64,000 nt of DNA from a virus (lineage: Duplodnaviria > Caudoviricetes). A program made the position numbers and the translations under genes. The notes below the pieces were generated by a model that worked only from the letters and a program-made list of their open reading frames with translations, did no database searches and was not told where the DNA came from. Shown in pieces: positions 7,836 to 48,173 of this stretch (position 1 is the first letter of the stretch; the number at the start of each line of letters is the position of its first letter). The stretch lies in IMG/VR virus record IMGVR_UViG_3300044719_000048, positions 64,001-128,000 of that record; one strand, given 5' to 3'.

Positions 7836-9595
7836 TATGCCAGCCTCGTGGGTGCACCTTGGATGCGCTGTTGCCGCTCGGCGTACACAACATTGACCAC
7901 CAGGCTGTTGATCTTGTTGTAGCGGATTGGAACATTGGCCGTTCCCGGAGGCGCGACACCCGGCGTGATAGAGCCGTTGTCCGTGAACTGCAGCGGATCG
8001 CCTGCGTTGATTGTGGCTAAGAGGCCTACACCCTCGGACGCTTTCCGACCATAGACCTTGTACTGTGCAGCGACTTCCATAGGGAGCCACGTGAGTTTGA
8101 CGGAGTTGTTGTTACCCATCGCATTCGTGATCTGCGGGAAGACCCAGTTCGACGGGGGCCCTTCCTCGCCGTCGCCGTTCACGACCGACACGCCGTAGGA
8201 GTACATCAGAGGCGTCAGCGTACCTGATCCGTGAATGAGCTCGAACTGCAGGCCCGGACTCGGCGGCGCAGTCACGATCATCGGATCGGTCGGCGACTGC
8301 ACGGTGACATAGGACACTAGGCCAGGAGCAGCTATACGGCAAGCGTTCTCCAAGTCATAGCCATAGAAGTTGGTCATCAGCAAGCCGCTGCGTGGCGCGA
8401 ATAGCTGATTGATCTGTGCCTCACACGCCGCTTGCACTTGCGAGAGGATAGCAGTGTTGAAGCAGAAGACAGTGACCTCGATGTCACGTAAGATCGCTAT
8501 AGGATCTTGGAACACGAAACGTGGTGCGTACATCGTGACCGACTGCAGGTATGAACAGTAGTCTTTCTTCTGCTGCGTTGTCCAAGGTGTAGTGGTTAAT
8601 GCCGAGACACGCATCACGTTCATCCACTCCAAGGCCATCGGGTTAATGTCGCGCTGGGCCTGCGTCACCGAATCGATGACGCCTGGATAGTCACCGACTG
8701 TCGCCAGATACTGGGACTTCGTGACCGCCGACGAGTAGGTGCCGAAGGCCCCACTACTCAAGTTCTTGTAAGTCTGGATCGGCTGCTCATCGCCACCCCC
8801 TGTCGGGTTTGCCAAGGCCGTGCCCGTGATTTCCGGATGGCCGTCCACTGAGAGAGGCTTGCCTTGCAGAGTCTGGTTCGACCCGTCTGCGCCATTCGTG
8901 ATGGCGTATTGAATGACGATGACATCGGAGACCTGCGGCGTATAGCCGAACTGCTGCGAACCGAAGACCACGAGTAGGCGTCCATCCGACGTGGTGAGAT
9001 CCGCATACGCCGGAAGGCCCCTGTAGTTCCAGAGCGTGCCAAACGATTTTTCGATCAGCGTATTGTTCACGTAGACCCTTACGTCTTGGTCGGAGACGGT
9101 GAACGAGTCGTCCTCGGAGAGGAAGGTCTGACGAGGCGAACCCAAACCACTCATCGCGAAGGCCGTGATCCGGCCTTGGAACAGCGTCACCGTCTGCGGT
9201 ACGTTAGCGGTGAAGAACAGCTGCTCGCGATTGAAGTAGTATTGCCCAGCGATCAGGAACTGAGTCATCGGATTCAGCGTCTGCGTGGTAGTCGACGTGA
9301 GCGAAACATCTAGCCCGGCCGGGAGCTTACGCGTCATGCGCAGGCCCTGCATCTGGGTGATGGCTCGAATAGCGTCATCGGACTGCGCGGTTTCCGCGAA
9401 TGCGTCCTCCGCCGTTCGGATGTTTCGGCCTTCCATGAAGGTGCCAACAGCGGCGACCAACTCGATTAGCGTCTGAGAGGTCTGCGTGGTCAGATTCCCT
9501 TTCCACGTAGGCGTGTTCGACAAATAGGTCTCGAACGCCGTGACGAAGTCGTTGAAGTCCGCTGCTGTTACTGGGATGCTCAGGTCTTGGCTCAT
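7835..9595 (-). CDS. Baseplate wedge protein (P2 gpJ/T4 gp6-like)
   Basis: DF..F..A...YL, LLVVFG...FG..P, Y.ITNGADG, TGGGDEQ, SAVTKSQY motifs. Confidence 0.85.
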   Translation of the reverse strand: MSQDLSIPVTAADFNDFVTAFETYLSNTPTWKGNLTTQTSQTLIELVAAVGTFMEGRNIRTAEDAFAETAQSDDAIRAITQMQGLRMTRKLPAGLDVSLTSTTTQTLNPMTQFLIAGQYYFNREQLFFTANVPQTVTLFQGRITAFAMSGLGSPRQTFLSEDDSFTVSDQDVRVYVNNTLIEKSFGTLWNYRGLPAYADLTTSDGRLLVVFGSQQFGYTPQVSDVIVIQYAITNGADGSNQTLQGKPLSVDGHPEITGTALANPTGGGDEQPIQTYKNLSSGAFGTYSSAVTKSQYLATVGDYPGVIDSVTQAQRDINPMALEWMNVMRVSALTTTPWTTQQKKDYCSYLQSVTMYAPRFVFQDPIAILRDIEVTVFCFNTAILSQVQAACEAQINQLFAPRSGLLMTNFYGYDLENACRIAAPGLVSYVTVQSPTDPMIVTAPPSPGLQFELIHGSGTLTPLMYSYGVSVVNGDGEEGPPSNWVFPQITNAMGNNNSVKLTWLPMEVAAQYKVYGRKASEGVGLLATINAGDPLQFTDNGSITPGVAPPGTANVPIRYNKINSLVVNVVYAERQQRIQGAPTRLA

Positions 9596-9596
9596 A

Positions 9597-10019
9597 TTAT
9601 GTTCCTGCGGTCTCCTGGAACCGAATGTCCAGTGGGTTTTTGGTTAAGGTATCCGTGCCTACGATCCGAACTTCGTAACCGGGGATCAGGGTATTGGGCG
9701 TGATAGAGCACTTGGCGTAGTCCAGACGAATGCGCGGCTCCCACCTTGAGATAGCCTGAATCATGGCGATCCTCATCTTCGCTGCGGTGACGAGATCGAT
9801 GGGCTCTTGCAGGAACAGTTTCCATTCGGAACCGTACTCAGGCTGAAAGATCTTGCCGCGCTCTCCAATAGAACAGTTGAACAAGTTGAAGAGGCTCGAA
9901 TGAACAATGGACAGTGAGTCAGGCAGTCGGTCAGGCAAAGCGTCCTGGGTGACCCTGCTGTTGACGTCTATCCATGTTGCCCCTGACAGGGACAGTTCAA
10001 AGTTGGTAGGCTGTGGCAT
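9597..10019 (-). CDS. Baseplate wedge protein, gp25/GPW family
   Basis: SLFNLFNCSIGERGKIFQPEYGS...LQEP...AISRWEPRI signature. Confidence 0.9.
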   Translation of the reverse strand: MPQPTNFELSLSGATWIDVNSRVTQDALPDRLPDSLSIVHSSLFNLFNCSIGERGKIFQPEYGSEWKLFLQEPIDLVTAAKMRIAMIQAISRWEPRIRLDYAKCSITPNTLIPGYEVRIVGTDTLTKNPLDIRFQETAGT

Positions 10020-36227: not shown

Positions 36228-37250
36228 TTAGACGGCGACCTGGGCTTTGATGGCCGGATGTGGATCGTAGCCGACGATCTCGAAGTCCTCGAACTTGTAG
36301 TCAAAGATCGATTCGGGCTTGCGTTTGATCACCAGCTTCGGCAGCGGTTTGGGGGCACGCGACAGCTGGAGTTCGACCTGTTCCATGTGGTTGGAGTAGA
36401 TGTGTACGTCACCTCCGGTCCAGATGAATTCGCCCGCCGCCATACCCACTTGGTGGGCGATCATGTGAGTCAGCAGCGCGTAGGAAGCGATGTTGAACGG
36501 CAAACCCAAGAAGACGTCACACGACCTCTGGTAGAGCTGGCAGTCCAGTGCGCGGCGCGGAACGCCCTGATCATCGAAACGTGCGTGTGCCAACTCGACG
36601 GCGTCTTTATCATCACCGCGTAGCGCCTCCGACCAGTCGAGACTACCTCGATAAGCAGTAGGATTCGGGCTGAGGTTGTCACGCTCAGACAACGACAGCT
36701 CGCGCGTGTAGAACTGGAACAGCGCGTGGCAAGGTGGCAGCTTCATGCGTGGAATGTCGGCCACGTTCCATGCACTGACAATTAGGCGCCTGCTGTCCGG
36801 GTTGGTCTTCAGCTGATTGACGACCTCAGCAATTTGGTCGATTGACTCATGCTCGACAGGCGTACCTTCCGTAATCAGCTGCCAGCCTTCGTTATCGCGG
36901 ACCTCGTATTGGGTACCGCTGTCTCTCACCGCAACGATGTTGCCCGGCCACGAACGCCACTGATAGCCATAGATGGGACCGAGCTCGCCATTCTCGTCTG
37001 CCCACTCGTCCCAGATTGACACGCCGTTCTGCTTTAGGTACTCGATGTTGGTCTGCCCGGACAGGAACCAAATCAGCTCATGGATAATCGACTTCAGGTG
37101 GAGCTTCTTGGTCGTGACCAGCGGAAAGCCGTCTTGCAGATTGAAGCGTGTTTGGTAGCCGAAGACCGACTTGGTGCCAGTGCCGGTGCGGTCGGCCTTG
37201 AACGTACCGTTGGACAGTACGTGACGCATGAGGTCGTGGTATTGTTTCAT
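36228..37250 (-). CDS. thyA: Thymidylate synthase with two loop insertions
   Basis: [59 protein letters not shown]. Confidence 0.98.
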
Positions 37251-39960: not shown

Positions 39961-39995
39961 AAGAAAAAGCCCAGCCCTGTTAAGGACCGGGCTTT
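39961..39995 (-). terminator. Intrinsic terminator
   Basis: AAAGCCCGGTCCT-TAAC-AGGGCTGGGCTTT TTCTT on the - strand. Confidence 0.8.
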
Positions 39996-40008: not shown

Positions 40009-40929
40009 TTAGTGTGCGGCCACTTCGACTTGCACAGCGACCGGCGGCGTGGCGACTTCTGTGAAGGCGACGGTTTCCGGTTCGGTAGAGGCTTCGATTT
40101 CGGCCAGCTCCACGTCAGCGGCGGCCTCTTCAGCAGAAACGACTTGCGGCTCTGCTACGGGCGCAGTAGTCGACGTTTCCGGTGCGTAGGTGGTGAAGAT
40201 CACCTGGTACATGTGGCTTCCGTAGAAGACACACGGGTAGACGCCGAGGAACTCGTTCCAGTTCACGTGTACGGGAGCGCCCTCGATTTCGATCTCGAAC
40301 GTGAAAATCGACTTGCCACTCTGTTCCGACGACGGCGAGAACGCAGCAATCAAGGCGTCGCGCGTGATGCCCTTCTCGGAACGGATGAACAGCGAATGCT
40401 GAACCGAACGAGGGGAAGTTCCAGGCGACTGCTGATACGACGAGACGGCCTGCGCCAGATACTCGGCGTCGAGGACCGAAGGCAGGTCTGACGACGGAAT
40501 GAGCTTCACGATCGGACCTGCGTTGTCCGTGGAATCGCTGCCGTAGTCGTCTTTCTGGAGTTCTTGGCCGTCGGATTGAGTGCCGTCATCGTCACCCAGG
40601 TCTTCTCCGTCCTCGATGACCAGCTCATCTTCATCGGAGTTCAGATCGAGGGCGTCTTCGCTGTCGGAGTTGCTGATAGCCAGCAGGTTCATCAGACGGG
40701 CTTCCAGTTCCGGGTCGACCATATGGAACTTGCGCTTGTTCAGGAAGCGGTCGATGTCGCAGCTCAGAACGTTGTTGTTCTCGTCGGCATACACGACCTG
40801 TGCCGGATACTGCTTGCGCACCTTTTCGGGCAGAGCCATGTTGGTCAGGAACAGGAAGCGCGCTTCGCGGCCGTCCTCACGGACGAAGATGGAACCGGGG
40901 GTCAGGAAATCCAGATCAGCAATGTTCAT
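40009..40929 (-). CDS. Acidic hypothetical protein (stand-alone unit)
   Basis: 306 aa, GAGGA RBS, bracketed by an AGTAAATA motif and a terminator. Confidence 0.75.
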   Translation of the reverse strand: MNIADLDFLTPGSIFVREDGREARFLFLTNMALPEKVRKQYPAQVVYADENNNVLSCDIDRFLNKRKFHMVDPELEARLMNLLAISNSDSEDALDLNSDEDELVIEDGEDLGDDDGTQSDGQELQKDDYGSDSTDNAGPIVKLIPSSDLPSVLDAEYLAQAVSSYQQSPGTSPRSVQHSLFIRSEKGITRDALIAAFSPSSEQSGKSIFTFEIEIEGAPVHVNWNEFLGVYPCVFYGSHMYQVIFTTYAPETSTTAPVAEPQVVSAEEAAADVELAEIEASTEPETVAFTEVATPPVAVQVEVAAH

Positions 40930-40988: not shown

Positions 40989-41477
40989 CTAGAAAGGACC
41001 CGGCTGCGTCTGCCAGCAGGTGATACCACGTTCACGCCACATCGCAACGGTCGAATCGCGGTCTTCGATGACCAGCAGGATGCGGTCGAGCGAGTAGCCA
41101 GCCTCTTCGATCAGGCGGGGCTTGAGCACAGTGTCGTGCTCCTTCTCACTGTCGAGTGGACGCATCAGCAACTTGGACTGATCGATCTGAAAGCCGAACA
41201 GCTCTTGCAGCTGCAGGGTCGTGTACTCGCGGCAAAGCTCAGAACGGCCGGTGACGAACAAGTATTCCAGAGACTGGGTGTCTCGTACCATGTCGAGGAA
41301 CATCCCATACACGACATGCCCTGCCGGAATCGTCTTGTCCGTGTGGTACAGATTGTCGTATGTCTCGCGGTCGCCATTCAGGAAATGTGGGAGACGCTCC
41401 TCCGAATCTACGAGACACCCATCGATGTCCAAGATGATCAGGTTCTTTTGGGTTTGGGTGATCTGTACGTGGTTCAT
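40989..41477 (-). CDS. HAD-family phosphatase (polynucleotide 3'-phosphatase-like)
   Basis: [16 protein letters not shown]...D..LK, IEDRD...MWRERG resemble the T4 PNKP phosphatase domain. Confidence 0.85.
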
Positions 41478-42157
41478 TTATGGCTCAGGGTAACGAACTC
41501 GGAACGAGTTTCGGGATTGCGGAAAGCGCCGCCGACCTTGGACGTCACCGTATCGGAACAGGCGTCTTCCACGCCGCGCGTTTTCACGCACATATGTTCG
41601 GCTTCGATGATGACGGCAACGTCTTCGGTTTCCAGAATGAAGCACAGGGCGGCGTGAATCTGTGCGGTCAAGCGCTCCTGCACTTGCGGGCGGGCAGCAA
41701 AGAACTGCACGATGCGATTCATCTTCGACAAGCCCAAGACCTTGGCGCCCGGAATGTACGCCACGTGAGCCTTGCCGATGATGGGCAACAAGTGGTGCTC
41801 ACACGTCGAATTCAGCGTGATGTTGCGCTCGAGCACCATCTCGTCCACGTGCATCTTGTTCTCGATGACCGTGCACTTAGGGAACTCATCGTAGTTGAGC
41901 CCCTTGAAGACCTCGTTCATGAACATTTTCGCCACGCGCGTCGGCGTCTCGCTCAGGCTGTCGTCGAGCAAGTCGAGATGCAGTTCCTCCATTATGGCGT
42001 GCACATGGCGTTCGATACGACTCAGTCGGCCAGCATCGTACTGAGCGTCCTTTACGGAAAGAGCGAGAGACTGCGGCACCTGCAACATCGGCGTTTCGAT
42101 GCCGAGCTGCTTCAGATGCTCGTTGACCAGCTTGCCCAGTTGAGGGTCGTTCTTCAT
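41474..42157 (-). CDS. folE: GTP cyclohydrolase I
   Basis: [49 protein letters not shown]. Confidence 0.98.
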
Positions 42158-42167
42158 GTTGTTCCTT

Positions 42168-42965
42168 TCAGGCTAATGCACAGATGGTGTGCATCTGAAT
42201 AGACAGACGCAGATTGTTTTTCAGCGCGTACGCGGCTGCGTAGCGGTAGTTGGCGGCCGTCTGCTCCTGATCGACGAGCTCAGCGTCCCATATGCTGGAG
42301 ACTTCGCCTTCATAGGGCTTCCGGTAGACGGTCATTGGCGAAACCATCACGATCTTGTGACTGCGCAGCGCCCACTCAGGAATCGTGTGATGCGCCGACT
42401 CCGGATCGGCAGAGATCACGAACTTGTATGCGTGCGCCCACCACTGGACCTTCTCAGGCACTTGCGGGTACTTCTTGAGTCGCTCGTTCGCCTTTGGGCT
42501 GACGATGAACTCCAGTCGGTCGTCGCCAATCAAGCCCATGTGCTCGGCCTGCTCGAAGAACTTCGGCTGCGTGCCGTTCGTTTCCACTTGGATAGCAGAG
42601 AAATGGCACAGGGCTTTGGTGATCAGCGCCAGTACATTGGCTTGCAGCGTGGGCTCTCCGCCAGTGATGACCAAGATGTCTGAGGGGGAGTAGCCCTTGA
42701 CCCGCAGCAGGACCTCGAGCACGGTGTCGATGTTCAGAATCGAGGCCTTATCGAATTGGAACGACGTGTCGCAAAACAAGCAGTGGTCGGTCTTCGATCC
42801 GTAGTTGCATCCCGCGAGACGAAGGAAGACCGCGGGCTGTCCGGCCCGTGTTCCTTCTCCTTGCAGCGTACGGAACCAAGATGTCACGCGTAATCGATTG
42901 TCCATGAAGCGGTAGTCACGGGCACTGATATTGCGGTCTTGGTTTTGAACTTGGATGGGTATCAT
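42168..42965 (-). CDS. queE: 7-carboxy-7-deazaguanine synthase (radical SAM)
   Basis: [22 protein letters not shown]...[30 protein letters not shown]; start at MIPIQ (ATGA coupling). Confidence 0.95.
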
Positions 42966-43393
42966 GGCGCTTTCACCTTCGAGTTGAAGACCCGGTCGTT
43001 GTAGCACAACCGGGATTGCATACGAATGAAGGACTTGGGGAGCCCTTCCTCTACGTTATTTACGTAGTAGTCGTACAGCTGCTTCGTCGTCGGAATGTTG
43101 TTGTACTTGGGGATCTCTACTGAGACCTCGTTCGGCATCAGCGACTTCGGATCCGGCATACTAGTGCGCGTCCAGATGCCGGAGCCTTTTGTGTAATGCC
43201 ATCCGAGGATAGGCACACCTGCCGCGTGCAGATATGCCAGTCCGGAGACCACAACGAGAAATTTGTGCTTGCGCTTTGCTTTCTCGATGTTGTGGACTCC
43301 GATTGCGAGGTCGACGTTGCCCGAAGCCCATTTGCGGAACTCCGGTGACAGCGATGGATACCCGTAGACGTTCTTTGCTTTGAGTACCCTCAT
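42962..43393 (-). CDS. Orphan protein inside the deazaguanine operon
   Basis: 143 aa, ATGA-coupled on both sides. Confidence 0.7.
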   Translation of the reverse strand: MRVLKAKNVYGYPSLSPEFRKWASGNVDLAIGVHNIEKAKRKHKFLVVVSGLAYLHAAGVPILGWHYTKGSGIWTRTSMPDPKSLMPNEVSVEIPKYNNIPTTKQLYDYYVNNVEEGLPKSFIRMQSRLCYNDRVFNSKVKAP

Positions 43394-44832
43394 TTCTTCC
43401 CTTTCTTGGTTGACATGCCGTGGAATTCCTCATAGCGCATGATGGCCTTCGTCACGTTGGCCTCGGCCTTCTTGTGCTGCTCGTTGACCTTCTGCGCCGC
43501 AGTGAATAAGCCCTTGTCCTCCTTGTTCTTCCGCATGAACTCTTTCAAGGCTGGGCCGTGCTTGGTCCACGCCCTGTCGAAGCCCTTGTCCATGTCGCAA
43601 ACGAAAGCAAAAAGCATGCGGTAGAGAGGCCACAGGGCCTTGCGCGGCTGAATGGTCAGCAGCAACTCGTCCAGAGGCAGCTTGCCATTCAAATACATCT
43701 TGGTCATAGACGCAATGATCTCGGCCAATCGACGTTGCACGAACAGCGTATGGATTGCGTTGGCGTCCTGCGACATACGATAGACTTGTGCATCGCCAGC
43801 CAGATTGCAGACCGGGCAGTTGCACGCCAGCCCGAACGGAGCGGCGAGGGTCTCCAACGGACCTGCCGATACTTGGTCCTTGCGGCTGATGATCGTGCCC
43901 CTTGTCCAGAACGACAGGCTTGCCTGACTGTACGTCGAGGAGTCCGCAGTGATGAACGGCGCCGTCTCGTTCAAGGTCAGAATGTTGTAGAGCGCGATGT
44001 GCAGCGGGCTCATCGTCCCCAGAATGTGGAACCGATCATATACACCCTTGGAGCGGCACAACACATAGCACATGTTGATGACCGAGGCCGTTACCGAAGT
44101 CAACTGGTTGTCGTAGTTTGCTTGACCGATACCGCCCATAGACAGGCCGGAGCCCACCTTGTGCTTCAGCACGTAGTCGAGGAACTTGGCGCGATTCTCC
44201 AGTGTCAACCCGTGCGACACATCGTAGAGCTCGCAACCACTTCCCTTGATCTTCTTCGAGATGTACTCGTTGTTCTTCAGCATGACCTTGCACATGCGGA
44301 GGAACCAGTCGGTGCCCTGAAGGTGGCGAGGAACCGGAATGTCCATGCCGATGCCTATGTTTATCTTCTTCGCGTAGAAGTGCGAGACCTCATCGAGGTC
44401 CATGAACTCGGTCACGCCCTTCGACAGCTGGAAGCCACCTGAGTCAGACACCACATGGACCTTACCGTTGCGCCGCACGTAATCCGAAGTGGCCAGACGT
44501 TCCGGCGTGACCATCATCATGTTGTACCCGGCTTCGAGCATGAACTCAGGGGCTGTAAGCGGCGACAGATGCGTGGCCCGGTCGAACTCGAAGTCAGGAA
44601 TACCGAAGGTAGCACCGTTGCCGCGACCCACGAACACTGTCTTATCCTTGAGGTAGATCGTGTGCAGACCCTTCACTCTCTCGGACGTGTAAGGCTTCTT
44701 GGGTGTGCCGTAACGTACTCCGAGGAAGCTGTTCAGCGCCATCGAGTTGACGGCGGCCGGCATCAGAGATACGCGAGGGTTGACCGACTCTTTGTTCAGC
44801 AGCTTGTCGAGTGGAAGGCAGTCAGGTTTCAA
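43390..44832 (-). CDS. dpdA: TGT-family transglycosylase, probably DNA 7-deazaguanine insertase
   Basis: VVSDSGGFQ, GMDIP, HG, MGG, FHILG, TADSSTY, CNCPVC...H zinc site; preQ0 genes on both sides. Confidence 0.85.
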   Translation of the reverse strand: MKPDCLPLDKLLNKESVNPRVSLMPAAVNSMALNSFLGVRYGTPKKPYTSERVKGLHTIYLKDKTVFVGRGNGATFGIPDFEFDRATHLSPLTAPEFMLEAGYNMMMVTPERLATSDYVRRNGKVHVVSDSGGFQLSKGVTEFMDLDEVSHFYAKKINIGIGMDIPVPRHLQGTDWFLRMCKVMLKNNEYISKKIKGSGCELYDVSHGLTLENRAKFLDYVLKHKVGSGLSMGGIGQANYDNQLTSVTASVINMCYVLCRSKGVYDRFHILGTMSPLHIALYNILTLNETAPFITADSSTYSQASLSFWTRGTIISRKDQVSAGPLETLAAPFGLACNCPVCNLAGDAQVYRMSQDANAIHTLFVQRRLAEIIASMTKMYLNGKLPLDELLLTIQPRKALWPLYRMLFAFVCDMDKGFDRAWTKHGPALKEFMRKNKEDKGLFTAAQKVNEQHKKAEANVTKAIMRYEEFHGMSTKKGKK

Positions 44833-45592
44833 AGTCAGCCTCGTTCGATGTGATGTAGTCGGGAGGCAAGGCCGGAAGGATCTCGCTCTTGCGATCTTCG
44901 TCGTAGTGGTCGCCGGACTTCATGGCGTTCACCAGCTCGCGTAGCTCTCTGGTCTGGAGTGGATCAACGTTGTATTGCTCTTGGGCGATGCCGAGCTGGC
45001 GGAAGATACCCCACCGGCGCAGGCAGACAACGCAGCGACCGCAGTTACCGGCCTCACCGGACAGGCAACTGCTGCTGTGCTTGATCTGCTGTTCCGTGAT
45101 GCCGTTCTTCAACGCCCACTCGACAGCGCGCAGCTTGTTCATTTTGGCTTCCGCCAGAGGAAAGCGAACCTGGACGTTCGACTTGAACGGAGCCAACACG
45201 TAACCGAGCGTCTCGTTCATGAGCTCTACGAACGCCCAGTTCTTGTCGGTGGCACTGTCGTGGGTTTCGCCTTGGAGTGCACCCATCCAGATTTGATCGG
45301 GCAGATACATGCAGGCAGCCGCAGTGGCCAACAGCATGTTGCGCCCCGGGATGTAGATGTTGCCGGAGGCCGACCCTTCTTTGGACTTCAGTTGGCCGTC
45401 GATGTCCACGTTCAGCCACGGCAGATCGCGCTGAATCACGTAATCAGGGAGAGCCGCGATCTCCTTGGCGGCATACTCCTGGCCGATGTTGTAGAACACG
45501 CAGGTAACGGTTGCGTCCGGGTAGTTGACCTCGGCGTAACGCTTCATGATGAGCGAGTCGAGGCCTCCGCTGTATAAGATGAGGATATTCAT
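44822..45592 (-). CDS. queC: 7-cyano-7-deazaguanine synthase-like ATP pyrophosphatase
   Basis: LYSGGLDS PP-loop, GQ...KE, YIPGRN, PL...K, SC...CGRCVVCLRR. Confidence 0.9.
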   Translation of the reverse strand: MNILILYSGGLDSLIMKRYAEVNYPDATVTCVFYNIGQEYAAKEIAALPDYVIQRDLPWLNVDIDGQLKSKEGSASGNIYIPGRNMLLATAAACMYLPDQIWMGALQGETHDSATDKNWAFVELMNETLGYVLAPFKSNVQVRFPLAEAKMNKLRAVEWALKNGITEQQIKHSSSCLSGEAGNCGRCVVCLRRWGIFRQLGIAQEQYNVDPLQTRELRELVNAMKSGDHYDEDRKSEILPALPPDYITSNEADFET

Positions 45593-46126
45593 TTAGATTG
45601 GCTTGCTATTGTTAGAGGTTTGGTTCCTGAAAAGGCCGCGATCGCCTTCGACCACGTGATCGATTTCCTCGTGAGGGAAGACGATCCAGTCAGAAGTGGT
45701 CATACCTGCAATATTTACTCGACTGCGGATGGACTCATCCACGTTGTTATCGAGCACCGCAGGCACGAACTCGGCGCTTACGTGGCTCCCATAGTAGGCT
45801 GCGTGTGCCGTCAGAACCTTGGTCAGCGTGCGTCCCTGCGCCACCACGTCTTCCAGATAGACGAACACCGCTCGGTCATCGTTCGTCAGGTCATCCCACG
45901 TTGGGTGCTGCACTCGCATCGGGTGCGGCGAAGCCATAGGGAAGACCACTCCGAGAGGCAGTGCCATCTTGTAGGCTACGAGCTGGCCGAACGTCAGGCC
46001 GCCCCGGGCGATAGCGAACAGGAACAGCCTGTCGGCCTTGATCTGCTCGGCGTATTTCACTCGGAGTTGTTCAACCACGTGGTTGGCAACGTCCTTCAGT
46101 TGTTCGTAGGTGAGGTAGACTTTCAT
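45593..46126 (-). CDS. Type I purine phosphoribosyltransferase (Gpt-like)
   Basis: AIARGGL, VYLEDVVAQGRTL PRPP-binding loop, WIVFPHE. Confidence 0.85.
   Translation of the reverse strand: MKVYLTYEQLKDVANHVVEQLRVKYAEQIKADRLFLFAIARGGLTFGQLVAYKMALPLGVVFPMASPHPMRVQHPTWDDLTNDDRAVFVYLEDVVAQGRTLTKVLTAHAAYYGSHVSAEFVPAVLDNNVDESIRSRVNIAGMTTSDWIVFPHEEIDHVVEGDRGLFRNQTSNNSKPI
45712..45719 (-). promoter_or_regulatory. AGTAAATA motif inside the PRT gene (possible internal promoter for queC-dpdA)
   Basis: Exact match, 120 nt upstream of the queC start. Confidence 0.3.
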
Positions 46127-46989
46127 AGTGGGTACGTGACATTCAATCCGAAGTTGGCGGCCGGCGTGTTGTAGCTTTCCACCCAGCGCACGATCTCGTT
46201 GTAGTTCGCGAACATTGTCTCATAACCGGCCGCACTGAATTCCTTGGGGTGCTTAATCGCGAGCTCCTGCACCTTCAAGGCCTTGCACAGCGCATTCAGA
46301 GTAGCCGAATCGGACAGCTTGTCGGTCTCGACGTGAATGACGTTCGGCAAGGCGTGCACCAATCGTTTGTGAACATCGAGACGACGAAGCATACGGCGTG
46401 CGTAGTCTTCTGGCATCGCCAGCTTAGTGGTCTTGCGTGCTTCCTCCTGTTCCGGGCATGGAGCGAAGATGCCAGTGTAGTCGCAGGCAAAGTTGCTGCA
46501 CAGCCACTTGACCAGGTCCGAAGGCATGAGGTTGATGGTCACGTCGAAGCCTTTCAGCACGGCATCCATCCACAGGTCGTTGGGAGCTTCCACGTCGCCC
46601 ATGAGCGTGACGATTTGGGTCTTCACCACATAGCTGAACTCGCGGTATCGGTTCAGCAGCGTCCTCAGGTAGTAGATGTGCTGATCAGTCAACACTTCCT
46701 CGTAGTGGCATTCCACGTAGCACATGGAGTGGTGCCGCGCCACGGGCAGGAAGGAAGAACCGCTGAAGTCCTTGAAGTGCGGATGCGTGCGGAACAGGAT
46801 GGCGTGCTCTGGATCGAACGGCTTCACAGCTTCGTACCCGAACTTGTATCCGTGGAACGACCATCCGTGGAAGTACTCACCCAAGTGCTTCTCGCTGCCA
46901 ATGGTCAGCGTGCGGCCCAAGGCCGTGTTTATCGCGTCTTGCAGGGACTTGCTTCCCGTACGCTGCATGCTCAGGATATGGACCTTCAT
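46123..46989 (-). CDS. Sulfotransferase-fold protein (Stf0-like)
   Basis: ILSMQRTGSKSL (5'-PSB loop), LGEYF, VVK, INL...DLV..LCS (degenerate 3'-PB), IHVETDKL, FANYNEI; start at MKVHIL. Confidence 0.65.
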   Translation of the reverse strand: MKVHILSMQRTGSKSLQDAINTALGRTLTIGSEKHLGEYFHGWSFHGYKFGYEAVKPFDPEHAILFRTHPHFKDFSGSSFLPVARHHSMCYVECHYEEVLTDQHIYYLRTLLNRYREFSYVVKTQIVTLMGDVEAPNDLWMDAVLKGFDVTINLMPSDLVKWLCSNFACDYTGIFAPCPEQEEARKTTKLAMPEDYARRMLRRLDVHKRLVHALPNVIHVETDKLSDSATLNALCKALKVQELAIKHPKEFSAAGYETMFANYNEIVRWVESYNTPAANFGLNVTYPL

Positions 46990-46990
46990 G

Positions 46991-47668
46991 TCAGAACTCC
47001 AGAATGAATTTGTTTCCGTCCCACGACGGGAAGCCTTTGGCACAGACGTTGTACTTCTCGACGCAGTACTCTACCGTCATCGAAGGCGTCATGTGGCCTC
47101 GGATGTCGAACGAAGAGGCCAGCCGTTCTTCTCTAGTAGCGGCGTCGATGATGCGCCACTTGAGGTCCGAACCATTGTGCAGAGTGTTGAACCGAATGTG
47201 GTAGGTCCTCATCTGATCGGTGACGGCCTGGACAACGATTTTGGCGGCTTCCTCAAAACGCGGTTCGTCCAGATACTTGTTGAACTGCAGATCGGGAGTA
47301 CCGACGTACGGCTGGAACAGCTTGTTGGTGTCCTCGAAACGGCCTTCCTGAATGGTATTCATGAACACCGTGAAGACCTTGTTCTCTCCGTCGGCCTCTG
47401 CCGCACTGAAGTAGGCAACGCGAGTGTCGTTCGTCGGATTCACGAAGTCCACGACTGTCCACTGATTCTTGACAGTCAGCGCTGCGATATGTCCCAGTGC
47501 GTAAGCCTGCTTGATGCGGTCCACTTCCGTGAAGCCCAGATGGGAAGTCACCGTGGACCGCGCCCAGTCGGCGTTGATGTGTACAGCGTTCAGAAGTGCG
47601 GCCACCTTGCGAGCCAGCGTGGTCTTGCCCGAACCCGGAAGGCCGATGATAGTGATGATCTTACGCAT
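46991..47668 (-). CDS. Adenylylsulfate (APS) kinase-like protein with an extra C-terminal domain
   Basis: GLPGSGKTTLA, NADWAR, HLGFTEVDR (cf. CysC DLGFS..DR), VVDFVNP. Confidence 0.75.
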   Translation of the reverse strand: MRKIITIIGLPGSGKTTLARKVAALLNAVHINADWARSTVTSHLGFTEVDRIKQAYALGHIAALTVKNQWTVVDFVNPTNDTRVAYFSAAEADGENKVFTVFMNTIQEGRFEDTNKLFQPYVGTPDLQFNKYLDEPRFEEAAKIVVQAVTDQMRTYHIRFNTLHNGSDLKWRIIDAATREERLASSFDIRGHMTPSMTVEYCVEKYNVCAKGFPSWDGNKFILEF

Positions 47669-48118
47669 TTATGCTCCCATGTAGATTGCGCTGTTAGATT
47701 CGTGCTCGGAGACTTCAACCGACACGAGCGTGACGCGGTCTCCGTAACCGGCGTCCTTCAACCACTGCTCAGCCACCTGGTAGGTGTACTCGGCGAATTT
47801 CTCGCACCCGCCTGCAGGAAGTTCTACCAACCGCAGGACGCCTAGGCGATGACCTTCACGGAACCACTCGATCTGCGGGTCGTCGGAAGCCACGATGGTA
47901 GTGTGATCGAACGTATCGGCCAGAATCTGCTTGAGGGACTTGACGCCGCCGAAGTCGACCACCCAGTTGCGCGCGTCCAAATCCTCTGCCGAAAACACGA
48001 ACCTGAAAGCCAACGCGTATCCGTGCAGAAGACGGCAGTGCGAGTCAGCCCGCCACTGGCGGAAGGCGCAACTGAAACCAGTGGAATGCGGGTAGTGTTT
48101 TGTGCTCTGATAGGACAT
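47669..48118 (-). CDS. queD: 6-carboxy-5,6,7,8-tetrahydropterin synthase
   Basis: FRQWRADSHCRLLHGY, WVVDFGG.K, FDH, GCEKFAE, VEVSEH..NSAIY; start at MSYQS (GGAG RBS). Confidence 0.93.
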   Translation of the reverse strand: MSYQSTKHYPHSTGFSCAFRQWRADSHCRLLHGYALAFRFVFSAEDLDARNWVVDFGGVKSLKQILADTFDHTTIVASDDPQIEWFREGHRLGVLRLVELPAGGCEKFAEYTYQVAEQWLKDAGYGDRVTLVSVEVSEHESNSAIYMGA

Positions 48119-48137
48119 GTCGATCTCCGGTGTAGAC

Positions 48138-48173
48138 AAAAAAGTGCCCGGCAGATCGATTCAATCTACCGGG
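48138..48173 (-). terminator. Terminator/attenuator hairpin in the queD leader
   Basis: CCCGGTAGAT-TGAATCG-ATCTGCCGGG-CAC-TTTTTT on the - strand. Confidence 0.65.

Follow-up and report, generated by a model that had tools for sequence, protein, structure and literature searches.

A gene for an APS-kinase-like protein and an adjoining gene for a putative sulfotransferase, both embedded in a 7-deazaguanine operon of a jumbo phage, raise the question of whether phages carry their own sulfation module and, if so, what would be sulfated. PAPS is the donor used by sulfotransferases, and one class of bacteria reduces adenosine 5'-phosphosulfate (APS) directly (PMC1175818). We analysed a stretch of 64,000 nucleotides (hereafter, the window), which is part of a 189.5-kb record of a phiRSL1-like jumbo phage, estimated to be 80% complete. 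The features of the locus are listed here in their minus-strand order, with the kinase directly followed by the second gene of the pair, which we call X.

48147-48173, minus strand: terminator-like hairpin directly upstream of QueD, 12-bp stem followed by a T run; ends the preceding transcription unit
47669-48139, minus strand: QueD (Pfam PTPS); its stop abuts the kinase ATG
46991-47668, minus strand: kinase, 225 aa, APS-kinase-family N-domain plus a new C-domain (Pfam APS_kinase, PDB profile, fold)
47216-47668, minus strand: kinase N-domain, residues 1-151, with P-loop, NAD, R37, LGF46, D50-R51, DFVNP78 and RFxDTN
46994-47215, minus strand: kinase C-domain, residues 152-225, beta-rich, seven strands in the model; matches no known fold or family
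46123-46989, minus strand: X, 288 aa, divergent Stf0-like sulfotransferase-fold protein (by predicted structure)
45593-46126, minus strand: Gpt/XGPRT-like type I phosphoribosyltransferase (PRTase), 177 aa (Pfam Pribosyltran)
44822-45592, minus strand: QueC-like protein, 256 aa (Pfam QueC, 51 bits; NCBIfam TIGR00364, 53 bits, below cut-off)
43390-44832, minus strand: DpdA-like DNA transglycosylase, 480 aa; no Pfam match, assigned by its relation to a Motura protein
42962-43393, minus strand: conserved 143-aa protein without an assigned function, 94% identical in L005 and found in all cassettes
42168-42965, minus strand: QueE (Pfam Radical_SAM); likely start at the ATG at 42965
41474-42157, minus strand: FolE, GTP cyclohydrolase I (Pfam, 209.7 bits)
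40989-41477, minus strand: HAD_PNKP-type phosphatase, 162 aa (Pfam HAD_PNKP, 61.9 bits)
39966-39995, minus strand: terminator-like hairpin closing the unit after the ORF at 40009-40929, 13-bp stem followed by a T run

From QueD to the HAD phosphatase, the genes are tightly packed and partially coupled in translation. Both genes of the pair lie on the minus strand where a preliminary description of this DNA, made from its letters, had placed them, with one revision: the ORF listed for X (46123-47043) starts too early. All homologues begin at its Met19, whose ATG (46989) follows the kinase stop by 1 nt and is preceded by a GGAG at a distance of 7 nt; the X gene therefore spans 46123-46989 and encodes 288 aa. 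The start of QueE was placed with the help of L005, a relative with which its alignment begins at residue 15. The DpdA-like protein is 30% identical, across 94% of its length, to the Motura "tRNA guanine transglycosylase", whose gene sits in Motura's QueC/QueE/FolE cluster. All genes are under purifying selection relative to L005, with dN/dS values of 0.09 for the kinase and 0.17 for X.

The PRTase ATG overlaps the X stop (ATGA). Its Pfam Pribosyltran score is 28.3 bits (cut-off 26.3), accompanied by a weak NCBIfam HGPRTase match, and its PPi loop (R41-G42-G43), PRPP loop (E92-D93-V-x-A-x-G98-R99-T100) and DWIVFPxE segment are invariant in 7 sequences. In the HAD_PNKP phosphatase, DxDG, T76/R78, K119 and D139 are invariant. 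The earlier observation that the window holds no ATP sulfurylase extends to the whole 189.5-kb record (estimated 80% complete), and neither window nor record contains a PAPS_reduct/CysD-type gene. Without an ATP sulfurylase in the record, APS must be supplied by the host.

The kinase and its appended C-terminal domain

Judged from its sequence and predicted structure, the kinase most likely belongs to the APS-kinase family and is predicted to convert APS to PAPS. It scores 39.3 bits against Pfam APS_kinase (PF01583; cut-off 21.1) and matches PDB entry 2yvu (E 2e-10), whereas its 31.8 bits against the NCBIfam apsK equivalog (TIGR00455) fall far under the cut-off of 138.7. With a profile from alignment A2, the best 20 matches in the PDB are all APS kinases (E 2e-17 to 6e-9). 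The preliminary description had proposed a structural comparison with CysC and Stf0 as its check, and had named NMP or gluconate kinases as the nearest folds that would speak against its reading. Using the AF2 model (pLDDT 90), the top five VIA-align matches of the N-domain are all APS kinases (Z: 4rfv, 18.9; 2yvu, 17.8; 1x6v, 17.3; 2gks, 17.1; 3cr8, 16.2; rmsd 1.8-2.4, 20-27% identity), and gluconate kinase is the next family at Z 15.6. In the same comparison, X is nearest to Stf0.

The P-loop (Walker A motif GLPGSGKT) and the LGF..DR segment, both noted earlier as retained, are invariant in 24 relatives, and the motifs of the N-domain are invariant in alignments A2 and A6. In HMMER alignments, D34, R37, F46, D50-R51 and F75..P78 align with LDGDNIR, LGFSxxDR and SFISP of 2yvu, 4rfv and PAPSS1. 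R37, F46, D50-R51 and F75..P78 are invariant and, by correspondence to solved APS kinase structures, presumably contact APS. N32-A33-D34 aligns with D-G-D; the catalytic (second) Asp is invariant and the first is Asn clade-wide. The lid is ~14 aa shorter than in CysC/PAPSS1, with only DTNKLF left before the C-domain follows, and HMMER alignments to APS kinases stop near residue 120. In PAPSS1 and CysC structures, the missing stretch (KGLYKKAR...FTG) carries the second adenine-stacking Phe.

The extra C-terminal domain pointed out in the preliminary description is real and conserved (residues ~152-225). Its motifs YHIRFN, KWRII and KYNV are conserved, and ten of its residues, mostly polar, are invariant, including R159, N161, T162, W171, R172, E181, K205 and N207. 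Searches of ESM-Atlas gave no usable match by features and a structural TM of at most about 0.5. We saw this domain in no other architecture, only fused to the APS-kinase-type domain, and a scan of 185,579 species genomes found no bacterial-type kinase with it. One homologue of the C-domain kinase lies on a bacterial contig amid LPS-core genes, with no sulfotransferase within 9 kb. The beta-rich C-domain probably completes or regulates the short-lidded active site.

The N-domain is far more widespread. Hundreds of phage proteins carry it ahead of other C-termini, without a sulfotransferase gene nearby, and in a large phage family, likewise without such neighbours, it is joined to a small HxGH nucleotidyltransferase. 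Scans of IMG/VR and of a metagenome collection with the kinase alignment were dominated by an abundant phage family of ~253 aa that shares only the N-domain, whose loci held no cassette genes and no sulfotransferase-sized neighbour family. The loci of C-domain kinases were then sought by single-protein scans.

X and the sulfotransferase fold

By its predicted structure, X is the founder of a small, fast-evolving phage family with a fold nearest to Stf0 and the carbohydrate sulfotransferases; the family comprises 25 representative clusters among 1.84 billion proteins. The AF2 model (pLDDT 91) has Stf0 (1tex) as top match both by Foldseek (E 1e-5) and by VIA (Z 10.9, 197 residues aligned). Other sulfotransferases align over 180-207 residues and kinases over about 155, and P-loop kinases score about 1.5 Z units below Stf0. 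X has no Walker A motif. Furthermore, every named neighbour of the model in ESM-Atlas is a sulfotransferase cluster (TM 0.56-0.66 by query and 0.40-0.80 by matched model, rmsd about 3-4.6 Å), the ESM-Atlas feature search likewise yields sulfotransferase clusters, and matches in BFVD include annotated phage sulfotransferases.

At the level of sequence, X has no significant match in Pfam (none at E ≤0.1), PHROG or NCBIfam, and the family profile finds nothing in the PDB at E up to 10. The best Pfam score among 26 X members is to Sulfotransfer_4 (E 0.012), with weak matches confined to residues 5-28. Comparing the X family with the phage Sulfotransfer_2-type genes by hhalign gave a probability of 0.4%; therefore, a sequence-level link between the two cannot be claimed. 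When X was compared directly with phiRSL1 ORF237 and ORF232 by BLASTP, only noise was returned. We searched 50,697 phage records, both near and at the protein level, using the region, X, an Arg-type X (P0025) and the PRTase, and found no match; by this measure, cultured phages are without X or the Gpt-like PRTase at BLAST sensitivity.

The preliminary description had reported a retained 5'-phosphosulfate-binding loop and EYF motif, together with a replaced 3'-phosphate-binding Arg. The loop after strand 1 follows the pattern R-[ST]-[GA]-S-K and reads SLQRTGSKS here, with R10, S13 and K14 invariant, and E38 of LGEYFH is invariant as well, in agreement with the first two observations. E38 and H41 are candidates for the catalytic base by their position after helix 1. 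The third observation is essentially borne out: among near relatives, position 156 (INLMPSD) holds Pro without exception (15/15), and among deeper ones it always holds Arg (11/11). We located the 3'-phosphate site from the model, in which position 156 falls at the end of strand 150-155 and before helix 159-172, and from sulfotransferase motifs. S165, invariant, lies nine residues past position 156 in helix 159-172 and is the 3'-phosphate Ser by position; we take R/P156...S165 to be the putative 3'-phosphate-binding pair. On this model-based placement, the X family would tolerate being without the canonical 3'-phosphate Arg.

Co-occurrence across phages and the putative acceptor

The kinase with the C-domain adjoins X in the window and in L003-L008, L014 and L179, and a stand-alone kinase of the same clade adjoins an Arg-type X in L010. 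Arg-type and Pro-type X occupy the same cassette with the same kinase. In phiRSL1, L175, L177, L178 and the P0048 locus, the C-domain kinase is instead found near Sulfotransfer_2-type genes (in L178, 47.9 bits; cut-off 22). The combination of this kinase, a sulfotransferase-fold gene and a HAD_PNKP phosphatase recurs in both deazaguanine and thymidine-hypermodification islands. The X family goes with deazaguanine and Sulfotransfer_2 with thymidine hypermodification, so that the type of sulfotransferase tracks that of the DNA modification. The Gpt-like PRTase is specific to deazaguanine islands: it follows X in every deazaguanine cassette whose contig reaches past X, and also in L011, and is absent from L010. 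The deazaguanine cluster of Motura has no X, PRTase or HAD, and Motura has no APS-kinase-like gene; its single HAD_PNKP match is sub-threshold (20 bits) and about 75 kb from that cluster. These observations should be weighed against the largely inherited gene order of related jumbo phages, which makes synteny alone weak functional evidence.

We give an even chance to the reading that the kinase and X form the core of a phage-borne sulfation module, combining PAPS supply with sulfotransfer. From the folds, motifs, operon structure, purifying selection and co-occurrence in two kinds of hypermodification island, which are directly established, we infer APS as the substrate, PAPS as the donor, the hydrolysis of PAP and any acceptor. 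Most likely, the kinase would phosphorylate the 3'-OH of host-made APS to yield PAPS, and X would use PAPS to sulfate an acceptor linked with the 7-deazaguanine pathway of this phage. The HAD_PNKP phosphatase is a candidate PAP 3'-phosphatase and may remove PAP, an inhibitory product. The PRTase might recycle the guanine released by DpdA, or make a deazapurine ribonucleotide that could itself be an acceptor.

The joint travel of kinase and sulfotransferase in DNA-modification islands suggests that sulfate may be placed on something tied to the modified DNA. In its fullest form, the proposal is that phiRSL1-like jumbo phages decorate hypermodified DNA with sulfate by means of 1) an APS kinase, 2) an acceptor-specific sulfotransferase and 3) a HAD 3'-phosphatase, a portable three-gene module that would plug into either a glycosyl-hydroxymethylpyrimidine or a 7-deazaguanine island. 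Here, the product would be a sulfated 7-deazaguanine-derived nucleotide in DNA, or its ribosylated form via the PRTase. We regard this extension as tentative and rather doubtful. Counting against sulfation of the cassette product, preQ0, which is the expected one, offers no obvious hydroxyl or amine. preQ1, which would provide an amine, was considered as well, but no QueF gene turned up in the record of 189.5 kb (about 80% complete).

PAPS might also be made, and something sulfated, with an acceptor unrelated to DNA or deazaguanine, such as a host or phage glycan, a protein or a small metabolite; the placement in the island would then reflect ancestry and expression timing. The nearest folds to X (Stf0, NodH and heparan sulfotransferases) all act on carbohydrates, the bacterial homologue of the kinase sits amid LPS-core genes, and the gene order flanking the island (DNA polymerase, primase and small ORFs) is inherited across these phages, all of which, with the lack of an obvious acceptor group on preQ0, would fit such an acceptor. 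However, the sulfotransferase type switches with the kind of DNA modification, X-family genes adjoin QueC or the PRTase even on unrelated short contigs (L011), and the kinase and X genes are translationally coupled within the Que operon. Moreover, in Motura the absence of X is accompanied by that of the kinase and of a HAD in the cluster. A non-DNA acceptor is, in our estimation, unlikely.

Alternatively, the kinase might not act on APS at all, and might phosphorylate another hydroxyl (the 3'-OH of a PRTase-made deazapurine ribonucleotide, a sugar or a DNA-borne group), with X binding that nucleotide or using another donor, so that the module would serve phosphotransfer or a nucleotide pathway. 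The short lid, the extra C-domain and the sub-equivalog score are consistent with such an activity, and the same three features tell against the suggestion in the preliminary description that the phage diverts host APS to PAPS, whereas the folds, the motifs and the co-occurrence with sulfotransferases speak for it. A non-APS substrate would further accord with gluconate kinase being only about 3 Z units behind, the fusion of the N-domain to HxGH nucleotidyltransferases in a family without sulfotransferase neighbours, the PRTase and HAD beside FolE/QueD/QueE/QueC, which recall the toyocamycin pathway, and the loss of the assigned 3'-phosphate Arg in X. Against it, the residues that contact phosphosulfate and adenine in solved APS kinases are invariant here, and islands with neither PRTase nor Que genes also combine the kinase with a Pfam-significant sulfotransferase. 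In addition, X is without a Walker A motif and its named Atlas neighbours are only sulfotransferase clusters. We consider a non-APS kinase improbable. A role as a 5-hmdU DNA kinase was considered and set aside, since related islands have both the kinase and, next to it, a distinct HMUDK_hel gene; there is no HMUDK_hel gene in this genome.

Finally, it is very unlikely that the Pro-type X is catalytically altered, using APS or acting as a PAPS-dependent "sulfate as leaving group" enzyme (e.g., in 7-amido to nitrile dehydration or in activating a group for substitution): the clade-wide Pro156, the structural matches to elimination-type enzymes (retinol dehydratase, CurM and OLS sulfotransferase domains, LGS1) and a QueC divergent enough to fall below the NCBIfam cut-off could be read in its favour, but Arg- and Pro-type X share cassette and partners, which argues for one unchanged function, and the strong constraint on the kinase in Pro-type cassettes argues against APS as donor, weakening the earlier idea that the transferase might use it.

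As far as we know, sulfated bases in DNA have not been described. With a DNA-linked acceptor, the locus would stand for a hitherto unreported class of hypermodification, in which DNA would carry a sulfate ester or sulfamate for the first time, and it would matter for restriction evasion, DNA glycosylase-type defences and enzymatic DNA tools. Even with another acceptor, the locus would add a new APS-kinase architecture, a new sulfotransferase family tolerating loss of the assigned 3'-phosphate Arg, and a phage PAPS supply, perhaps in APS-reducing hosts.

Comparison with known systems

The kinase shares with APS kinases (CysC; the PAPS synthase domain; PF01583) the P-loop fold, GLPGSGKT, the catalytic Asp, both Arg, the Phe of LGF and F-x-x-P. 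It differs in having NAD for DGD, a lid shorter by ~14 residues and an appended beta-rich C-domain of 74 residues, at 20-27% identity. Similarly, X resembles Stf0, the mycobacterial trehalose 2-sulfotransferase (1tex, PF09037), in its size and in the R-S/T-G-S type loop after strand 1. In contrast, identity is 12-15%, with no Pfam or HMM match, and X is phage-encoded within a deazaguanine operon, has a beta-hairpin insert with conserved aromatics at residues ~43-95, carries an invariant K14 in the loop and has Pro at the assigned 3'-phosphate-binding Arg.

Phage 7-deazaguanine systems (FolE/QueD/QueE/QueC plus DpdA; Hutinet et al., PMC6884629, PMC10516641) have the same precursor pathway and a DpdA-type transglycosylase, here in one operon. 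In the 2023 survey (PMC10516641), the words "kinase" and "phosphoribosyl" are absent and the five occurrences of "sulf" listed belong to Sulfolobus names; the eight phage 7-deazaguanine modifications counted by the survey and its predecessors (PMC10516641, PMC6884629) involve no sulfur chemistry, kinase or PRTase. The kinase, X, PRTase and HAD represent four additional genes that are not known from any deazaguanine pathway.

Toyocamycin and tubercidin biosynthesis is similar, by description, in placing a purine-type PRTase and a HAD phosphatase beside FolE/QueD/QueE/QueC. The putative resemblance is to the ToyH/TubE PRTase working with a HAD phosphatase on preQ0 or CDG; the other toyocamycin tailoring enzymes are missing from the phage operon. 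In a preprint on tubercidin, the tailoring enzymes include a PRTase and a "haloacid dehalogenase", as well as a GMP reductase and a UbiD-family decarboxylase. The phage operon differs in lacking the latter two and other tailoring enzymes, and in including DpdA.

The closest counterpart in a cultured phage is that of Ralstonia phage phiRSL1, which carries an orthologous kinase and a sulfotransferase (ORF232, annotated as a galactose-3-O-sulfotransferase). Its island is of the thymidine-hypermodification/glycosylation type, with TS-like and HMUDK-like genes, glycosyltransferases and nucleotidyltransferases and no Que genes, PRTase or X, and its sulfotransferase is of the Sulfotransfer_2 type, with no detectable sequence relation to X. 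Nevertheless, ORF238 (annotated as an APS kinase) is a full-length orthologue of our kinase at 48% identity, C-domain included, and there, too, the kinase lies in a DNA-modification island together with a sulfotransferase and a HAD_PNKP phosphatase.

Gene row containing the kinase and X

Single-protein matches link this phage to the phiRSL1/Motura/BCSR5 group of Burkholderiales jumbo phages. When the 50,697 deposited phage genomes were searched with the window region and with X, the 288-aa sulfotransferase-fold protein, neither query matched. The record is 189,544 bp long, of which the window covers bases 64001-128000, and is an estimated 80% complete. X and the 225-aa kinase preceding it belong to a tightly packed minus-strand gene row flanked by strong terminator-like hairpins at 48173-48147 and at 39995-39966.

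Genes of the row, in order of transcription
47669-48139, minus strand, QueD
46991-47668, minus strand, kinase
46123-46989, minus strand, X
45593-46126, minus strand, phosphoribosyltransferase (PRTase)
44822-45592, minus strand, QueC
43390-44832, minus strand, DpdA-like transglycosylase
42962-43393, minus strand, 143-aa ORF
42168-42965, minus strand, QueE
41474-42157, minus strand, FolE
40989-41477, minus strand, HAD_PNKP phosphatase
40009-40929, minus strand, 306-aa ORF

The kinase ATG is directly abutted by the QueD stop, the X ATG lies 1 nt past the kinase stop with a GGAG 7 nt upstream, and the PRTase ATG overlaps the X stop as ATGA. The preliminary description had reported a kinase and transferase pair; both ORFs and all the features it described are present in the sequence, except that the listed start of X has to move to Met19, where all homologues begin and the ribosome-binding site fits. 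Compared with the relative L005, the kinase gave a dN/dS of 0.09 and X one of 0.17; by customary criteria, both genes are functional. X was the fastest-evolving cassette gene in this comparison (72% identity, vs 97% for DpdA), and the corresponding identities to L014, another relative, were 27% and 53%.

Several further features of the region were noticed. The listed QueE ORF (42168-43007) opens with GTG and its relatives align from residue 15 only; the start is likely the ATG at 42965, giving a 4-nt overlap with the 143-aa ORF at its stop. The 143-aa protein (42962-43393, minus strand), located between DpdA and QueE, occurs in all cassettes and is 94% identical in L005, a conservation exceeded among cassette genes by DpdA alone; it may act together with the transglycosylase. 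In L005 (14168-16974, compared with window 42965-43000), QueE is flanked by two additional genes missing from the window, a 308-aa ORF directly upstream and a GIY-YIG (LEM-3-like) gene directly downstream. Homing-endonuclease-like inserts are also found within the islands of L175 and L014, and mobile endonucleases appear to target these modification islands with particular frequency. Finally, the 340-aa thymidylate synthase of the window (36228-37250, minus strand) matched its Pfam model in two stretches, indicating an insertion relative to canonical ThyA; as the genome record holds no HMUDK gene, the enzyme is probably an ordinary ThyA rather than a hydroxymethylase.

Fold and conserved residues of the two proteins

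Residues 1-151 of the kinase passed the Pfam APS_kinase cut-off, and the first 20 PDB matches to a profile of 24 relatives were all APS kinases. The five best superpositions of its AF2 model (pLDDT 90) were likewise APS kinases (Z 18.9-16.2, rmsd 1.8-2.4 A), ahead of gluconate kinase (Z 15.6), which upholds the preliminary assignment on structural grounds. Invariant residues D34, R37, F46, D50-R51 and F75..P78 align (HMMER) with LDGDNIR, LGFSxxDR and SFISP of CysC/PAPSS1; we take D34 to be the catalytic Asp and the remaining residues to bind APS through its phosphosulfate and adenine. Unlike CysC/PAPSS1, the phage kinase has Asn at the first Asp of DGD and a lid shorter by ~14 residues, the FTG segment being gone. 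Its score is far under the NCBIfam equivalog cut-off. The protein thus belongs to the APS-kinase superfamily, with a new architecture, and cannot be called a proven CysC. The C-domain (residues 152-225) is beta-rich, with ten invariant, mostly polar residues and no recognisable fold, and is found in fusion with this kinase only.

The same N-domain, with a clade-specific NADxxR motif, also exists as a stand-alone form of ~150 aa and in a large phage protein family of ~253 aa (L015-L094; e.g., P0094, P0113, P0121; counterpart in the window, 47216-47668), where it is joined to a small nucleotidyltransferase with HxGH and ISATxxR motifs. PAPS synthase and CoA synthase also pair a nucleotidyltransferase with a kinase, an analogy hinting that the whole kinase clade acts on an adenylylated substrate; the phage version is compact. 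The ~253-aa fusion proteins had no sulfotransferase-sized neighbour family.

X was unrecognised by the sequence libraries (Pfam, PHROG, NCBIfam, PDB profile search), and a search of 1.84 billion proteins gave only 25 representative clusters for its family. Its AF2 model is confident (pLDDT 91), and Stf0, the enzyme to which the transferase had been likened, was the top match both in Foldseek against the PDB (E 1e-5) and in an independent all-against-all structure search (Z 10.9, 197 residues). In the latter, other sulfotransferases aligned over 180-207 residues, and P-loop kinases over ~155 (Z up to 9.2). All named ESM-Atlas neighbours of the model were sulfotransferase clusters (Sulfotransfer_3, Stf0, NodH; TM 0.56-0.66 by query), in agreement with an ESM feature search, and a BFVD search led to annotated phage sulfotransferases.

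The motifs of X fit a sulfotransferase. Its invariant residues are R10, S13 and K14, of the R-[ST]-[GA]-S-K loop after strand 1, as well as E38 and S165; the last lies in the helix that follows strand 150-155. We take position 156, where this strand ends, to be the usual site of the sulfotransferase 3'-phosphate-binding Arg, from its location and familiar motifs. The position cleanly divides the family, with Pro in the window and all 15 near relatives and Arg in all 11 deeper ones. The Arg previously noted as replaced has thus indeed been substituted, and the ancestral state supports a sulfotransferase origin. Since an Arg-type X (P0021) occurs in L014 within the same ten-gene cassette and beside the same C-domain kinase, the substitution probably left the job of X unchanged. 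We class X outside PF09037, in a new family that has the sulfotransferase fold.

Association across phage genomes

The strongest new evidence is the association across genomes. In deazaguanine islands, the C-domain kinase precedes an X-family gene in the window, L003/L004, L005/L006, L007, L008, L014 and L179. On L010, an Arg-type X adjoins a stand-alone kinase from the same clade, and on L011 an X-family gene precedes PRTase and then QueC. Thymidine-type islands, which hold a thymidylate-synthase-like gene, 5-hmdU DNA kinase, glycosyltransferases and sugar-nucleotide enzymes, have an orthologous kinase near a Sulfotransfer_2-type gene in phiRSL1 (ORF238/ORF232), L175, L177, L178 (47.9 bits, cut-off 22) and the locus encoding P0048. 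The HAD_PNKP phosphatase is present in the same islands of both types. Kinase and phosphatase are thus the constant parts and the sulfotransferase varies with the type of DNA modification, as expected if it recognises something specific to each pathway, although the compared phages are related and part of the synteny is inherited.

In phiRSL1 itself (NC_010811.2, record 161865-171498), the stretch from ORF238 to ~ORF228 looks like an island for thymidine hypermodification and glycosylation: ORF230 is thymidylate-synthase-like, ORF231 is similar to HMUDK_hel genes (27% identical to the one in L175), ORF232 resembles Sulfotransfer_2, and the HAD_PNKP gene occupies 161865-162308.

As a second reservation about the association, a kinase homologue that includes the C-domain (39% identical) occurs at 9001-9768 of a 135-kb bacterial contig (L176, ENA contig k141_86521), between UDP-glucose dehydrogenase plus LPS-core glycosyltransferases and coaX/birA. 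No sulfotransferase lies within 9 kb of it, and C-domain kinases of this type had no relative among 185,579 species genomes.

Possible pathway and comparison with known systems

In the pathway that we propose, APS would be supplied by host ATP sulfurylase, PAPS would be made by the kinase, X would transfer the sulfo group and the HAD phosphatase might hydrolyse the resulting PAP. The lack of ATP sulfurylase described for the window extends to the whole 189,544-bp record (~80% complete), which also has no CysD-type gene. The HAD protein falls in the Pfam family for the PNKP (polynucleotide kinase) phosphatase domain, which in T4 is a 3'-phosphatase. PAPS is the general sulfotransferase donor, and P. 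aeruginosa, R. meliloti and M. tuberculosis have APS reductases of a bacterial class (PMC1175818); in hosts with such reductases, a phage would have reason to carry an APS kinase of its own. We give the core reading, a PAPS-making kinase with a sulfotransferase, an even chance, and the preliminary interpretation as a whole is partly supported.

A tie of the kinase and X to the deazaguanine pathway or to DNA is plausible. PreQ0 offers no obvious acceptor group for sulfation, and no QueF was found in the ~80% complete record. The PRTase (45593-46126, minus strand), a Gpt/XGPRT-like protein, is confined to deazaguanine-type islands; it carries the Gpt-type purine motifs RGG, EDVxAxGRT and DWIVFPxE and a family-specific C-terminal motif, VEGDRGLFRxGTS. 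Guanine recycling is a plausible role for it and the most economical one: guanine expelled by DpdA would be converted to GMP and on to GTP for FolE, a loop that would explain the PRTase. In the toyocamycin/tubercidin pathways, a PRTase makes a deazapurine ribonucleotide; by analogy, it is plausible that the phage enzyme does so too, offering ribose hydroxyls to a carbohydrate-type sulfotransferase. Sulfated DNA is a minority possibility that we consider unlikely, which, if true, would be categorically new. As phiRSL1 is cultured, sulfated nucleosides are open to direct search.

A full-text literature search on phage DNA hypermodification and sulfotransferases returned nothing relevant. The words kinase and phosphoribosyl are absent from the 2023 survey of phage 7-deazaguanine pathways, where "sulf", among the matches listed, belongs to Sulfolobus names (PMC10516641). 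Other phage Dpd systems have been expressed heterologously in E. coli (PMC6884629). Motura has FolE, QueD, QueE, QueC and DpdA as here, but lacks X, PRTase and any APS-kinase-like gene, and its deazaguanine cluster contains no HAD gene. Compared with such systems, the cassette presents known kinds of enzyme in a new genomic setting.
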